A stretch of DNA of 9,706 nt from a virus (IMGVR_UViG_2703718673_000017), one strand, 5' to 3'; counted from the first letter of the stretch, positions 773 through 7,517 are shown. Numbers and translations are program-made. Notes: generated from the sequence alone by a model not told the origin.

Positions 773-2710
773 TTACGGGTTATTCACTTCCACTGTTATA
801 CTTTCAATCAGCACCGGATATGTCGCACCGCTAGTGATATCGGTCACGCGCAATTTGTCTGCCGTAAACGTGCCGACCGGTGACTGTGACAGCATGAACG
901 GCGTCCCGTCCTTACCATCAATGACCGGCGTCACCTCAATACTGTTGTTACCGGCAAAACGGAAGCCCAGCGTATGCCATTCGTTATCAAATGCGCCGAA
1001 TGACCCCAGCTTCGTGTTCTGACCAGCATTTCCCTTGTGGTACATCACATTAAGGTCTGTGGCATCGCTCTGTACGTAAAACGACGCCAGCAGGTTATGA
1101 CCGGCATTACCTTCCAGTGTGACGCCCTGAGGCAGTGAAGAAACCGGCCAGTACAGCGCCAGTGCGTACTGATTAGCTGTCAGTGTGCCATCAACTTTAA
1201 AACGACAACTGATAAGCCCGCCCTTCTCCAGCAGGTCTGCGCCATTACCGGCATCATGCTGCATAAACCACGAGGAACTTCCTGTCTGTTTGGTCCACCT
1301 CAGCGCCTTACCTCCTGCAGCACCTGCATCATCAACTACCAATGCACGCCCTCCTTCAGCTCCCCATCCCTGCGGATTCAGTAAACCACCTGACTCTGTT
1401 GCACGGTAATAAAGCAGCGTTGTCACTGATTTCCCGTCCGTTGACGGTGTTGATGGTGTGTCCGGTGACGGCTTCTCATCCGGCGGCATCACAACCTGTT
1501 CCCCACCCACCAGTTCAGCCGTCCGTCCTGCATGGAGAAGAATCGCTGAGGCAAGACGGTCAGAAATAATCCCCCTGCGTGCCCATGAGCTGAAATGGCT
1601 CGCACGGTCTGCTGACGTCCAGTTTGCCGACGTCCGGGAGGCCGCACCGTAATATCCTGATGCCGGAATATCCGGGTCTTCTTCCGGTTTGTTCGTCGGG
1701 ACATTTGCTCCGTTCTCATCGGTCATGAACGGCACAAAGTGAATATTCTTTTCCGTTTTGTTTTTGTAACTGCCGTACACCGTCTGGTAAGTGGATTCGC
1801 TCTTCTGCTTCCAGAAATAAGTTGTGTCTCCACATATCCAGGGAACACCGTCAGCAGAACCACCAGCGCACTGTCCCACCATATCTGCAAGGTCCGTACG
1901 ATATTGTTCCACTACTTCTGTAAAACGGGCTGTGTGATTTGCTGGCGTTCCGTCAAAGTCAAATTCCCCCTGCATCCACACCACGGCAAGCAGCACATTT
2001 TTCGGGTTCTTTGCCAGCGCGGCTTTTGTACGACCGATGAGATCCTTATACAGCGGCCTGCCCACACCCCAGCGGGTAGAACTCTCTGAGGCACCGGTCA
2101 CGTCACTGTATGTTCCATCTGCCCCGGTGGTGAAAGCTGAACCACCACGGCAGCACGGAACCAGAAGAATACCCGCATTCGCCGGTATAAACGGCAGCAG
2201 CTTTTTGGCAATATGCAGCCCCTGCCCCACGGTTCCGTACTGACCTTTCGACAGGTCAGCTTTCGGATGGTTAAGACGGCTCATGTCCTGTACATCATGC
2301 AGACAGTGGTCTGCCGGAATAATGTCGTTATATTTACAGGGAGCGCCATCCGGCGTCACTGTGCTGCGACGAGCCAGTTGCTTTATACGCGGGTCAGGAC
2401 GGTCATATGTCTGCGGCAGAGGAAGCCCCTCACCGTAAGCCATGCCGTTCGACTGCCCGGCCAGTGGAATAACGTAGTAATAATCTGGCTCCGTGGTGAC
2501 CACTCCCGGATAGCCACCATCCCCCGTGCCGGGCACAACCACTGGCGTGGTCACATCCCCCTCCGCGGCAATCGCCTGCATCAGGGTATAAGGGGTTATG
2601 GCCACAGGACTACCAAACGGCTGCCAGCCCTCTTTCAGTTTGTGTGTCAGCTTTTCCGCAAGATCTGACGGCGACGCCGCCCTGACAACATCATAATGTT
2701 TAATCGACAT
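773..2710 (-). CDS. nanS: Prophage-encoded sialate (9-O-acetyl-N-acetylneuraminic acid) O-acetylesterase NanS-p, 645 aa
   Basis: Track ORF with ATG start and SD GGGAGA 6 nt upstream. N-terminus MSIKHYDVVRAASPSDLAEKLTHKLKEGWQPFGSPVAITPYT is what I recall for EHEC/Stx-prophage NanS-p (DUF1737 N-domain). Followed by an SGNH/SASA-like esterase core, a Pro/Thr/Ser-rich linker (PPDEKPSPDTPSTPSTDGKS) and a C-terminal beta-rich domain. Sits between Q and the lysis genes, as in Stx-type prophages. Confidence 0.9.
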   Translation of the reverse strand: MSIKHYDVVRAASPSDLAEKLTHKLKEGWQPFGSPVAITPYTLMQAIAAEGDVTTPVVVPGTGDGGYPGVVTTEPDYYYVIPLAGQSNGMAYGEGLPLPQTYDRPDPRIKQLARRSTVTPDGAPCKYNDIIPADHCLHDVQDMSRLNHPKADLSKGQYGTVGQGLHIAKKLLPFIPANAGILLVPCCRGGSAFTTGADGTYSDVTGASESSTRWGVGRPLYKDLIGRTKAALAKNPKNVLLAVVWMQGEFDFDGTPANHTARFTEVVEQYRTDLADMVGQCAGGSADGVPWICGDTTYFWKQKSESTYQTVYGSYKNKTEKNIHFVPFMTDENGANVPTNKPEEDPDIPASGYYGAASRTSANWTSADRASHFSSWARRGIISDRLASAILLHAGRTAELVGGEQVVMPPDEKPSPDTPSTPSTDGKSVTTLLYYRATESGGLLNPQGWGAEGGRALVVDDAGAAGGKALRWTKQTGSSSWFMQHDAGNGADLLEKGGLISCRFKVDGTLTANQYALALYWPVSSLPQGVTLEGNAGHNLLASFYVQSDATDLNVMYHKGNAGQNTKLGSFGAFDNEWHTLGFRFAGNNSIEVTPVIDGKDGTPFMLSQSPVGTFTADKLRVTDITSGATYPVLIESITVEVNNP

Positions 2711-2796
2711 CGAATTTCTCCCGTGTACAGGAACAGAGTTAAAAAGCCGGAACCGGAATCAAATCACAGGATGACCATCTGCCAGTGGCTGGTCGT

Positions 2797-2823
2797 AAAA
2801 AAAAGGCCGCGCCATGCGCAGCC
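2797..2823 (-). terminator. Rho-independent terminator (minus strand) 87 nt upstream of nanS
   Basis: Minus-strand RNA forms an 8-bp stem (ggctgcgc / gcgcggcc, one mismatch) with a 3-nt loop, followed by U8 (plus A-run 2797-2804). Confidence 0.5.
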
Positions 2824-3024
2824 GGAAATAAAGGGATAACGATGATAGTTTGAGAAAAACAGAAATAACACTTTTGTGGCAAAGCATGGTGCCGGGTGCC
2901 TCCCGGTGAATTCAGTACCAGCACCTGAATCCGCGATTATCCCATATACCTGGTTGCTGATTGCCCCTCCGCACAGGGGGATTCGCCATGCAGTAGTATT
3001 TTTAATAAACAGTAAACAAAAAAA

Positions 3025-3422
3025 TCAAGCATTATGCAGGCTGTTTCTTTTTATCACCGGCCACAGCAATACCACAATGCCGCAGACCAGCCCCCCATCC
3101 GCCAGCACCGACATGATTCTNNNNNNNNNNNNNNNNNNNNNNNNNNNNNNNNNNNNNNNNNNNNNNNNNNNNNNNNNNNNNNNNNNNNNNNNNNNNNNNN
3201 NNNNNNNNNNNNNNNNNNNNNNNNNNNNNNNNNNNNNNNNNNNNNNNNNNNNNNNNNNNTAATTTCTGACGTAAACGCGGACAGCGCTGGCTGATTACGC
3301 AGTACCTGTTCGATCTTCGCTTTCTAGGAAGCCTCACATTCACCATCTGCACAGGCCACCAGGTATGCGGCGTTAATCACCGCCTGTGCCAGATCGCGTT
3401 TCTCAAACTTTCCTTTTTCCGG
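3025..3422 (-). pseudogene. Degraded cargo gene at the Q-proximal moron site: TerB-like fragment with in-frame amber, split by the N gap, plus a C-terminal hydrophobic fragment
   Basis: Minus frame 3422..3327 encodes PEKGKFEKRDLAQAVINAAYLVACADGECEAS, then in-frame TAG (3326..3324), then KAKIEQVLRNQPALSAFTSEI up to the gap. No ATG in this frame after the upstream TAA (3425..3423). The A..A.ADG...E.AKIE pattern resembles TerB-family domains. After the gap, 3120..3025 encodes ...IMSVLADGGLVCGIVVLLWPVIKRNSLHNA*. The frame relationship across the gap cannot be determined. Confidence 0.3.
3121..3259. other. Assembly gap (139 N)
   Basis: Run of n characters. Track ORFs spanning it (translated as X) are artefacts. 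Confidence 0.99.
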
Positions 3423-6261: not shown

Positions 6262-6331
6262 TTAAGTGCGGGTGCGTTGAGGATGCCTGACACATCAGCG
6301 GTGGCGAGGGATTTCTCCCCCGCCTGGTCTC

Positions 6332-6487
6332 TTACTCCTCAGGTTCGTAAGCTGTGAAGACAGCGACCTCCGTCTGGCCGGTTCGGATTCGTACCTCGCA
6401 GAGGTCTTTCCTCGTTACCAGTGCCGTCACTATGACGGTTAAACAGATGACGATCAGGGCGATTAACATCGCCTTTTGCTGCTTCAT
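6332..6487 (-). CDS. hok: Hok-family type I toxin (HokC/Gef, HokD/RelF-like), 51 aa
   Basis: MKQQKAMLIALIVICLTVIVTALVTRKDLCEVRIRTGQTEVAVFTAYEPEE matches the Hok/Gef family (compare Gef MKQHKAMIVALIVICITAVVAALVTRKDLCEVHIRTGQTEVAVFTAYESE). SD AAGGAG 8 nt upstream of ATG 6487..6485. Confidence 0.9.
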   Translation of the reverse strand: MKQQKAMLIALIVICLTVIVTALVTRKDLCEVRIRTGQTEVAVFTAYEPEE

Positions 6488-6544
6488 AACCTGCTTCTCC
6501 TTGCCTTTCGGCGCGTAAGAGGCTAACCTACGTTTGTGAAGCAT
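6332..6544 (-). CDS. mok: Mok-like in-frame N-terminally extended reading frame overlapping hok (70 aa)
   Basis: Track ORF with ATG 6544..6542, extending hok by 19 codons in the same frame, as in chromosomal mokC/hokC. GAGG lies 9 nt upstream. Confidence 0.6.
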   Translation of the reverse strand: MLHKRRLASYAPKGKEKQVMKQQKAMLIALIVICLTVIVTALVTRKDLCEVRIRTGQTEVAVFTAYEPEE

Positions 6545-6610
6545 AGATTGGGCCTCAGATTAATGTTAAGCGTCTTGCAGGACGCGTAATGTTAACTGGG
6601 GCTTTTCTCT
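6540..6610 (+). ncRNA. sok: Putative Sok-like antisense RNA (boundaries approximate)
   Basis: Plus strand, antisense to the mok translation-initiation region. Candidate promoters: TTGTGA (6534-6539) with ATTAAT (6559-6564), or TTGCCT (6501-6506) with TAACCT (6524-6529). A 7-bp closing stem (6552-6558 with 6596-6602) is followed by a T-rich run 6603-6610. Ends are inferred by analogy to R1 hok/sok and are not verified. Confidence 0.35.
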
Positions 6611-6662
6611 GTCTGCCTTACGGTGGCATGCCCGAGGCAGACAGCCTCAAGCACCCGCAGCA

Positions 6663-6690
6663 ATTCTACTTAACTCTCGCTTTACAGCAA
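6663..6690 (-). promoter_or_regulatory. Putative hok mRNA promoter
   Basis: Minus strand: -35 TTGCTG (6690..6685), 16-nt spacer, -10 TAGAAT (6668..6663). The predicted start near 6656 (GGGUGCUUGAGGC...) resembles the R1 hok mRNA 5' end (GGCGCUUGAGGC...) as I recall it. Confidence 0.45.
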
Positions 6691-6730
6691 ACCGTTTTGC
6701 CCGATATGGGAATTCCCATACGGAATGAAT

Positions 6731-6835
6731 TCAGTTCCCCAGGCGCTCCATCAAAAACACAACCAGGCAGTAAACACCCACAACAGCAATAACAGCCAGA
6801 GCGCCTTCCATTACCAGTGAAATATCATCCGACAT
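6731..6835 (-). CDS. Small hydrophobic peptide, 34 aa, single predicted TM helix (not in ORF track)
   Basis: ATG 6835..6833 preceded by SD GGGAGGG (6845..6839, 3-nt spacer). Translation MSDDISLVMEGALAVIAVVGVYCLVVFLMERLGN, stop TGA 6733..6731. Same strand as all other genes. Confidence 0.4.
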   Translation of the reverse strand: MSDDISLVMEGALAVIAVVGVYCLVVFLMERLGN

Positions 6836-6870
6836 ATTCCCTCCCTTGGTGTGAATCCCGGCGAACGTTT

Positions 6871-6948
6871 TTACCCCCACCGACAAATAACATATACTAG
6901 AAAAGCAATAGCTATAGCAACGCCTGCAAATGCATCTGGCCGGCTCAT
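6871..6948 (-). CDS. Small hydrophobic peptide, 25 aa, single predicted TM helix (not in ORF track)
   Basis: ATG 6948..6946 overlaps the stop of the 190-aa gene (ATGA). SD GGGGGAGAA (6960..6952). Translation MSRPDAFAGVAIAIAFLVYVICRWG, stop TAA 6873..6871. Confidence 0.4.
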   Translation of the reverse strand: MSRPDAFAGVAIAIAFLVYVICRWG

Positions 6949-7517
6949 TGGTTCTCCCCCTGTGTCGCTTCTACTGCGATCTGACTGGCGTATTCGTTAA
7001 TGGTAACGATAAGTTCTTGCTCGGCCTCATCCAGACAACTACCGATACCTCGCCTGTCCACTTCAGAAGCATCGAAATCTGCACGAAGCCTGGCGACCTT
7101 CAGGATTGCGGACAACACCTCATCAGGGATTGCCGGAGAGTTGGTTGACGTTTCCGAGATTATCCGAAAATTATTGGTTGACGAACCCTTATTTTCCCGA
7201 AAGTTTCCAGCCTGAAGCATGGCGGCGCGGTGACACCAGATAATCCAGCCAAGCGCCATATCCCATGCCATGTATTCTCTATCGCCATTTTTTGCTCTGC
7301 GGCGATCTACAGATTCCCCGAAACGCTTCTCCATAAATAATTCATAGGCTGCCCGTTCATCCGATACTGATGCCAGTGATGCCAGTGATGCCAGTGCAAT
7401 TTTTAATGCGGTAAGCATGTTGTTTTGATCTTCATCGAGTCCGAACGGTATTTCATCCCGTGATGACTCAATTCCGGTAATCGTGTTCTGTAGCCATTCT
7501 TTGGTTAATTCAGTCAT
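6945..7517 (-). CDS. Hypothetical protein, 190 aa, with internal ASL tandem repeat
   Basis: Track ORF with ATG start. No family recognised. Contains the 9-bp tandem repeat encoding ALASLASLASVS. Preceded by a 126-nt AT-rich intergenic region with an SD-hairpin-AUG arrangement. Confidence 0.7.
   Translation of the reverse strand: MTELTKEWLQNTITGIESSRDEIPFGLDEDQNNMLTALKIALASLASLASVSDERAAYELFMEKRFGESVDRRRAKNGDREYMAWDMALGWIIWCHRAAMLQAGNFRENKGSSTNNFRIISETSTNSPAIPDEVLSAILKVARLRADFDASEVDRRGIGSCLDEAEQELIVTINEYASQIAVEATQGENQ
7368..7394. repeat. Perfect 9-bp tandem repeat (tgatgccag x3) inside the 190-aa CDS
   Basis: Plus strand 7368-7376, 7377-7385 and 7386-7394 are identical 9-mers. In frame on the minus strand, encoding an (ASL)n tract. 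Confidence 0.85.

Follow-up and report, generated by a model that had tools for sequence, protein, structure and literature searches.

The abortive-infection protein BstA is neutralised by aba, a short DNA element within the bstA locus itself, which acts as DNA and at high copy (Owen et al. 2021, PMC8585504). In BTP1, aba comprises 63 bp from −29 to +34 of bstA. The element depends on terminal CCCGCC direct repeats and is specific for the cognate BstA (PMC8585504). How aba switches BstA off is listed by the authors as an open question, and the palindrome described below is not mentioned in their paper (PMC8585504). We compare with aba a palindrome located next to a hok/sok locus of a viral sequence. 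Both are short DNA elements in cis which are embedded in a prophage gene of the bstA family, and the parent gene of our palindrome codes for a BstA homologue with a KilA-N N-terminal domain.

Other elements share single features with this palindrome. Lambdoid operators and further palindromes bound by dimeric regulators are perfect dyads of 16–24 bp near a promoter. The cis elements of hok/sok (fbi, tac, ucb/dcb and the sok promoter) belong to a bona fide hok/mok/sok locus, which the palindrome adjoins. Rho-independent terminators have in common with it a GC-cored stem with A/T-rich flanks. Remnants at lambdoid mosaic junctions are short foreign gene pieces which lie exactly at a module boundary, as is the case here. 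Finally, hairpins and quasipalindromes are associated with template-switch and deletion endpoints, and a breakpoint at the base of a hairpin-forming palindrome is what our locus appears to have in common with them.

The prophage locus

The window, that is the whole stretch of 9,706 nucleotides which was analysed, is the nin region of a lambdoid prophage. Its stretch from 6300 to 7000 is found with 100% identity in E. coli O157:H7 PV15-279 and in many further STEC genomes. In the annotation of PV15-279, the genome identical around hok, every gene of the locus is on the minus strand, in the order replication P, several hypotheticals, the 34-aa ORF, hok (annotated hokD), a hypothetical, DUF968, rusA, Q and SASA esterase; the window is collinear with this genome over part of its length. 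The following features are needed for the argument.

6332..6544, minus strand: mok (70 codons) and in the same frame hok (51 aa, 6332–6487), hokD in RefSeq
6482..6656, minus strand: hok mRNA leader/sok antisense region, Rfam RF01794, 114.9 bits against a gathering score of 59
6663..6691, minus strand: inferred hok promoter as read from the sequence, −35 TTTGCT (6691–6686), 17-nt spacer, −10 TAGAAT (6668–6663)
6699..6734, no strand: 36-nt patch shared by the window and PPompW-type prophages, absent in 933W-type hok loci
6702..6733, plus strand: remnant of a KilA-N/BstA-like gene, nt 174–206 of the 774-nt vB_EcoS-666R9 gene
6705..6720, no strand: perfect 16-bp palindrome TATGGGAATTCCCATA, intact core of the canonical 20–24-bp palindrome NNGATATGGGAATTCCCATATCNN
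6726..6733, no strand: TGAATTCA, KilA-N codons TTA ATT CA (Leu-Ile-Gln) with T changed to G
6731..6835, minus strand: 34-aa hydrophobic ORF MSDDISLVMEGALAVIAVVGVYCLVVFLMERLGN, hypothetical protein WP_001278460.1 in the identical O157:H7 genome

With a 51-aa Hok, a 70-codon mok and an RF01794 match of 114.9 bits the locus is a hok/sok type I toxin-antitoxin system, and the palindrome at 6705–6720 lies outside this unit. Since the RF01794 match starts at 6656, the hok transcript is expected to start near this position. The promoter was placed from this match start and from its conservation across hok loci; its −35 element could alternatively be read as TTGCTG (both readings together cover 6691–6685). 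A consensus scan of the window did not call this promoter because the −35 matches at just three of six bases. In a three-way alignment the promoter is kept in the window, PPompW and 933W. The 34-aa ORF found no match in a PHROG search; its stop codon (6731–6733) is inside the KilA-N remnant and its last sense codon AAC (6734–6736) straddles the right edge of the remnant.

Several further observations concern the surroundings. On the minus strand at 6871–6948 there is an unannotated hydrophobic ORF of 25 aa, MSRPDAFAGVAIAIAFLVYVICRWG, the start of which overlaps the stop of the upstream 190-aa ORF (ATGA). It looks paralogous to the 34-aa ORF, and its ...ICRWG* tail resembles the small ORF abutting hok in 933W-type loci. 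Downstream of Q, Rfam reports an STnc100 sRNA match at 2851–3017 on the minus strand (94 bits against a gathering score of 47), and a masked run of 139 N occupies 3121–3259. ARAGORN found no tRNA genes in the window; the O157 genome identical around hok carries tRNA-Arg, tRNA-Arg and tRNA-Ile between Q and the esterase.

The 36-nt patch next to hok

The initial annotation had noticed two palindromes, and its description of them is accurate. TATGGGAATTCCCATA is a perfect palindrome with arms at 6705–6712 and 6713–6720 (100%), and its end lies 13–14 nt upstream of the inferred −35 of hok, against 14 bp in that description. TGAATTCA at 6726–6733 overlaps the stop of the 34-aa ORF, as TCA at 6731–6733 is TGA on the minus strand. 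Neither palindrome has a U-run, and from 6300 to 7100 no terminator-like site was found. As palindromes, however, neither is significant and what is not random is the sequence itself. A perfect palindrome of at least 16 bp is held by 16% of 300 dinucleotide-preserving shuffles of the window, and by our own arithmetic about 38 palindromes of 8 bp are expected per 9.7 kb. On the other hand, the 22-mer CGATATGGGAATTCCCATATCG matches 6702–6723 with two mismatches, which is seen in none of 200 shuffles; the same 18–22-mer recurs at at least 120 viral loci and at 82 species-level loci, and the adjoining 13 nt also match KilA-N codons. Given this recurrence and the homology of the flank, chance palindromes without any history have practically no probability, although palindromy alone would not tell them apart.

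The homology of the window to hokW/sokW of 933W ends at 6698 and resumes about 36 nt further on in the 3′ end of the small hydrophobic ORF. In the three-way alignment there is a single gap of 38 columns in 933W with homology on both sides. The window thus carries a patch of 36 nt, 6699–6734, which is absent from 933W-type loci and which is flanked by the end of the hok cassette (...AAACCGTTTT) on one side and by the small-ORF module with its 3′ end (TTCCCCAGGCG...) on the other. The same patch is found beside hok in PPompW-type prophages, with a different upstream gene (paa/adfO); there, the palindrome is the perfect 24-mer CCGATATGGGAATTCCCATATCGG. The second suggestion made for the palindrome, a recombination or cassette junction, is therefore right in the main: a foreign patch lies between cassettes, with the palindrome at its left end.

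The patch is homologous to a KilA-N gene. In a local alignment the window at 6702–6733 and nt 174–206 of the vB_EcoS-666R9 gene (locus L005) are identical in 30 of 33 columns. The remnant retains the codons R-D-M-G-I-P-I-S-E-L-I-Q with a deletion of 1 nt after CCCATA and two substitutions. KilA-N genes of E. coli and Proteus phages read here GAT ATG GGA ATT CCC ATA TCG GAR TTA ATT CAA (DMGIPISELIQ), and by this codon match TGAATTCA is TTAATTCA, the Leu-Ile-Gln codons, with one T-to-G change. The EcoRI-centred TGAATTCA is thus an accident of mutated KilA-N codons and not a separate element. To the right of the palindrome, CGGAATGAATTCA matches CGGAATTAATTCA of locus L077 in 12 of 13 ungapped bases. 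A global-alignment test of the 30 nt right of the palindrome against the KilA-N gene was not significant (p 0.27) and we therefore claim homology only up to 6733–6734. The group-d hok-linked relics of the second geometry, for example locus L023, retain a longer piece of 44 nt, of which 38 are identical to the KilA-N gene.

Five carrier genes are members of Pfam KilA-N PF04383 (E 4e-27 to 4e-19). The carrier gene of the E. coli phage matches phrog_6287 BstA (E 3e-89) and PADLOC BstA (E 3e-21); the E. coli/Proteus carrier gene is thus a homologue of the BstA abortive-infection protein. A KilA-N HMM search placed 94 of 120 viral palindrome sites outside any KilA-N ORF, and among ORFs spanning the palindrome in the hok-linked viral loci none is an intact KilA-N ORF. 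The plus frame of the window reads ...LPDMGIPIRNEFSSPG... and is KilA-N-like just at DMGIPI, whereas the PPompW frame reads DMGIPISE followed by a stop.

A plausible source of the remnant is the arrangement found in vB_EcoS-666R9 (L005, ON470614), where Rfam sok at 1803–1973 (minus) and the KilA-N gene at 2328–3101 (plus) are divergent. We note that hok/sok and the BstA-like gene lie about 350 bp apart and divergently in all sampled loci which are 100% identical to the L005 gene; in L005 1803–3101 a toxin-antitoxin locus and an abortive-infection gene are thus neighbours. In the window, hok has a −35 region of the 933W type, unlike the type which is found beside the intact KilA-N gene. A simple deletion from the arrangement of hok with an intact KilA-N gene was therefore rejected as the whole story, and one deletion does not suffice for the history. 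The window has the appearance of a 933W-type junction with a 36-nt patch in it.

Is the palindrome the operator of a dimeric regulator acting on the hok promoter, as was first proposed? It is perfect, and the distance of its centre from the inferred hok start, about 57 nt upstream, is one at which sites for activators can be located. A hok-leader pattern fetched 120 viral contigs. The palindrome is exact in 40, decayed in 4 and absent in 76 of them, and hokW of 933W, which has the same leader and promoter, is without it. Counted from where the hok-leader pattern ends, the centre of the palindrome lies about 50 nt away in the window type and 67 nt away in the second geometry; beside the intact gene this distance is 530 nt, a value which is constant in every locus of the vB_EcoS-666R9 type. 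Thus, with the palindrome absent from about two thirds of the cassettes with the same promoter and with varying spacing, the operator role finds no support. Moreover, the palindrome is present in a single copy within the window, no regulator gene is found within 6.5 kb in the identical O157 genome, and the sequence derives from a coding region. It differs from lambdoid operators in all these respects: a single site, no cognate regulator gene, a coding origin, and neither retention with the promoter nor a fixed spacing. In contrast to the cis elements of hok/sok, it is located on the upstream side of the hok promoter and is covered neither by the hok transcript nor by the Rfam model; R1-like and 933W-type loci do not have it. 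A match to the sites of E. coli regulators (NarL, RcsB, Fis and others) was considered and dropped, none being known to bear a convincing resemblance. In our view an operator function is very improbable.

The distribution among E. coli genomes was also determined. The parent KilA-N gene is present in 137 of 5426 complete genomes, and no O157 strain is among the 30 parent-gene matches listed. The window-type patch occurs in 371 E. coli genomes and the intact 22-bp type of the palindrome in 633 genomes at 1084 places, with up to 4 copies per genome. One such second copy is also hok-linked: NZ_AP018488.1 2120538–2120612 has the intact 22-bp palindrome in another prophage of the same O157:H7 genome.

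A role of the RNA was also considered. The hairpin follows directly on the stop of the 34-aa ORF, which it partly overlaps, and shares its transcribed strand with hok; it could stabilise the 3′ end of the small-ORF message or weakly insulate hok from read-through of the nin operon. The predicted folds are stable: the 28-nt segment of the window gives a hairpin of −12.8 kcal/mol (z −3.1), a 51-nt segment −18.6 kcal/mol (z −2.35), and the 51-nt segment of PPompW a hairpin of about −20 kcal/mol. The hairpin is followed on the transcribed strand by CGGGCAAAA, which is no U-tract, and a terminator was not called. Furthermore, 933W-type loci keep the arrangement of small ORF and hok without the hairpin, and descent from a KilA-N gene rather than local design explains the sequence. 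We therefore regard this role as improbable. A Rho-independent terminator was rejected, as a U-tract is missing and 6300–7100 is without a terminator-like site. Unlike in terminators, no U-tract is present in either the window copy or the canonical version; Klebsiella phage 2b-type and D3-type KilA-N genes carry hairpins with A-tract, stem and T-tract at the homologous position. A known RNA family was likewise rejected: Rfam gives nothing at the hairpin, be it in the window or in nine KilA-N loci.

We consider it probable that 6702–6733 is an orphaned fragment of a KilA-N (BstA-like) gene at a module junction, with a breakpoint set by the hairpin, with no role for hok and in the course of decay. 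The following sequence of events is suggested. A fragment of a KilA-N gene would have lodged in the nin region, on the plus strand, where the hok cassette meets the small-ORF module. The 16-bp palindrome is the core of a stem–loop carried within the KilA-N coding sequence, and the base of this hairpin may have been the breakpoint at which templates were switched or illegitimate recombination occurred during the formation of the patch. We infer this breakpoint because the fragment starts at the base of the stem–loop in both hok-linked copies: in both geometries the KilA-N homology starts 0–3 nt from the left edge of the palindrome. The right end reaches 13 or at least 22 nt into the KilA-N gene, and with respect to the 3′ end of the small ORF the patch is placed differently in the two geometries. 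As hok keeps the same promoter and leader with or without the element, the element would not control hok. The local copy is decaying through the deletion of 1 nt which breaks the outer pairs, and the host strains are generally without the parent KilA-N gene.

There are two points which argue against a pure scar. The core of 16–20 nt is identical in three hok-linked lineages whose flanks are about 10% apart, in a sample of lineages mostly fetched by an exact core match; this could mean residual selection on the orphan copies and not neutral decay. In addition, some orphan copies are found in contexts unlike scars, such as the iterons of Dhillonviruses (see below).

The stem–loop of the parent genes

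The exact 20-mer GATATGGGAATTCCCATATC was searched for in species-representative genomes, one genome per species. It is found at 83 sites (82 loci), where about 0.5 are expected, and these are spread over Cyanobacteria, Bacteroidota, Chloroflexi, Patescibacteria, Verrucomicrobiota, Spirochaetes, Firmicutes and Alpha-, Beta- and Gammaproteobacteria. Of these sites 49 are in KilA-N ORFs at one fixed position, and 34 are outside any KilA-N ORF. Within the ORFs 43 sites read MGIPI and 6 read YGNSH, the latter in KilA-N ORFs of Bacteroidota at the same position of the domain and in the other frame. As two reading frames are used at the same position, the conserved entity is a nucleic acid and not a peptide.

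A sample blind to the palindrome gives the same picture. We drew 80 loci by the peptide motifs QGTWVHP and KLFADY; all 80 have the 20-mer with 0–2 changes, down to a protein identity of 61%, and it is still kept in a GC-rich genome of this sample. Diversity at third codon positions is 0.11 inside the palindrome and 0.50 outside, and the variable third positions inside are found only in or beside the central AATT. The outer pairs covary. For 79 copies with distinct flanks the covariation score is 0.150 versus 0.083 ± 0.010, a value which is reached by none of 500 shuffles; since these copies were fetched by an exact core match, only the outer pairs are informative. The pairs at ±11 are CG (56), GC (6), UA (6) and AU (4), those at ±12 are CG (19), UA (11), GC (10) and AU (5), and beyond ±13 pairing is at background level. 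The few stem mismatches seen have no clear bias for G.U on the sense strand.

These patterns show selection on a predicted stem of 10–12 bp with a free loop of 4 nt. We propose a class of KilA-N intragenic stem–loops, recognised in the sequences by fixed position, synonymous constraint and compensatory change, all of which are found in the parent genes. The window copy is an orphan and partly decayed member of this class. It keeps 8 of the 12 symmetric pairs of the canonical stem outside any ORF, and its outer stem pairs are out of register by the loss of one T after CCCATA. Unlike in an ordinary mosaic scar, the piece which was retained is the most conserved nucleotide element of the parent family and recurs as orphans.

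More distant KilA-N genes possess their own versions. We aligned eight phage KilA-N genes with 25–53% identity at the protein level, and all eight carry an individual inverted repeat at the same position. The repeats are TTTAACTACGGGAATTCCCATAGTTAAA, CGATATCG-6-CGATATCG, GCCGATATG-8-CATATCGGC, GGTCaGCCGG-4-CCGGCcGACC, GTGAAGC-10-GCTTCAC, AAATACCTCG-4-CGAGGGATTT and TAAAGGTGGGA-3-TCCCACCTTTA; the KilA-N gene of Nodularia phage 2AV2 has merely a weak 4-bp repeat, CTTC-6-GAAG. In 6 of 10 ORFs no other 36-nt segment of the gene is as stable as the one at this spot, with a near-tie in two more. In the D3-type and Klebsiella-2b-type stems the changes are compensated (CCTCG/CGAGG, CCCG/CGGG, CCCCC/GGGGG, GTGGG/CCCAC), and the peptides at the stem change completely (NTSDSRD, NTPEKGD, NVGESHL).

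Full-text searches for the palindrome sequence and for KilA-N together with palindrome, inverted repeat or hairpin returned nothing relevant. The KilA-N stem–loop is apparently an undescribed conserved nucleotide element of a large phage gene family.

Orphan copies and the comparison with aba

Orphan copies are also found far from hok. In Dhillonviruses the 22-bp palindrome lies between iterons in a repeat region downstream of the helicase-primase gene (L006 2440–2560), which the annotators of SO-1 flagged as a possible origin. A segment of 54 bp with the palindrome and one GGCAACCAAT iteron is present in Maverick, UAE_MI-01 and one IMG/VR contig and absent from SO-1, SSL-2009a and EK99P-1. 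The copy in UAE_MI-01 has an ATAACG variant, as in KilA-N genes of the Proteus type. No Dhillonvirus is among the organisms named in the KilA-N tblastn matches listed (60 listed; 40 of 64 in named genera). Transposition into Dhillonviruses by way of a target-site duplication was rejected: the 33-bp "duplication" is a further member of the native iteron array, and presence or absence is therefore equally explained by gain or loss of an iteron. The stretch AACCGTTT left of the palindrome, common to the window and the Dhillonviruses, was likewise dismissed as probably a coincidence; in the window it is part of the hok cassette, in the Dhillonviruses part of a diverged iteron.

In two Patescibacteria MAGs (L151 7747, L162 7669) a perfect palindrome of 44 bp, CCATACTCCCGGGATATGGGAATTCCCATATCCCGGGAGTATGG, directly precedes an efp-like ORF; its 20-nt core is the same and the context is not phage-looking. 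Five loci of Alcaligenaceae, cyanobacterial and proteobacterial origin (L148, L202, L177, L136 and L193) show clustered palindromes centred on GGAATTCC, for example ACGGGAATTCCCGT and GCAGGAATTCCCGC, at up to about 60 nt from the canonical one. Such clusters suggest local families of these sites in some genomes. In two group-d relics (L268 and L210) the copies are decayed with both arms changed together (GATGTGGGAtTCCCACAT), which is compatible with a hairpin-templated quasipalindrome correction or with selection for pairing in orphans. Plasmids contain few copies of the palindrome; some are under annotated KilA-N genes on cyanobacterial plasmids, and those on E. coli plasmids are under no listed gene.

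These copies bring us back to aba. The orphan palindrome might be functional in trans: a DNA hairpin or cruciform recognised by KilA-N could, when carried on a phage genome in replication, titrate or disarm abortive-infection proteins of the BstA type from the matching KilA-N lineage, in the way aba acts on the BstA of BTP1, and be kept by the prophage as an anti-defence decoy. In phages of E. coli and Proteus, the gene from which the palindrome derives codes for a BstA homologue and in the Proteus phage is placed directly downstream of cI, and BstA systems are neutralised by a short DNA element within the bstA locus (PMC8585504). The lytic Dhillonviruses, for which no KilA-N is among the tblastn matches listed, carry the palindrome polymorphically in a putative origin, and the core is unchanged in several hok-linked lineages. 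The BTP1 aba sequence itself contains GATAAGGtCCATATC, in our reading an imperfect inverted repeat with the arms GATATGG...CCATATC; it is weak and has the same arm sequence as the palindrome.

The differences from aba are considerable, however. The mapped aba lies at −29 to +34, whereas the palindrome is at codons ~58–66 of its parent gene. In contrast to aba with its direct repeats, the palindrome of the window has none: neither CCCGCC nor GGCGGG occurs between 6600 and 6800. For these reasons, a location at the gene start with different features, the identification of the palindrome as aba was rejected. While aba is cognate-specific, the palindrome is nearly invariant across phyla and is also present in KilA-N genes with other C-terminal domains. 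The N-terminal domain of the BTP1 BstA does not belong to the palindrome subfamily, and its gene is without a hairpin where the palindrome aligns; in the window copy the outer pairs are lost, and the resemblance to aba consists of one short match. We thus consider a decoy function unlikely, if clearly less so than an operator or an RNA role. The same reserve applies to its generalisation, namely that KilA-N genes across bacteria and phages might carry a cognate hairpin or cruciform site in the coding sequence of the DNA-binding domain and that the orphans would be decoys; this we regard as a doubtful, speculative extension.

Should the decoy reading be true, one KilA-N lineage would have frozen its cognate site as NNGATATGGGAATTCCCATATCNN, a KilA-N domain which recognises its own site would provide an aba-like self-recognition or self-immunity, and the hok-linked STEC copy as well as the copy in the putative Dhillonvirus origin would be anti-defence decoys.

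Under the reading that we prefer, an orphaned gene fragment, there is no dedicated palindromic operator for hok in this STEC prophage, and both "sites" belong to a single gene scar. One version of the stem–loop is conserved base for base from E. coli phages to cyanobacteria, Chloroflexi and Bacteroidota, in two frames and in free-standing copies. A conserved DNA hairpin within the coding sequence of a DNA-binding domain is a testable candidate for the recognition target of KilA-N, and the KilA-N hairpin may explain the frequent domain shuffling and the mosaic junctions at KilA-N genes.
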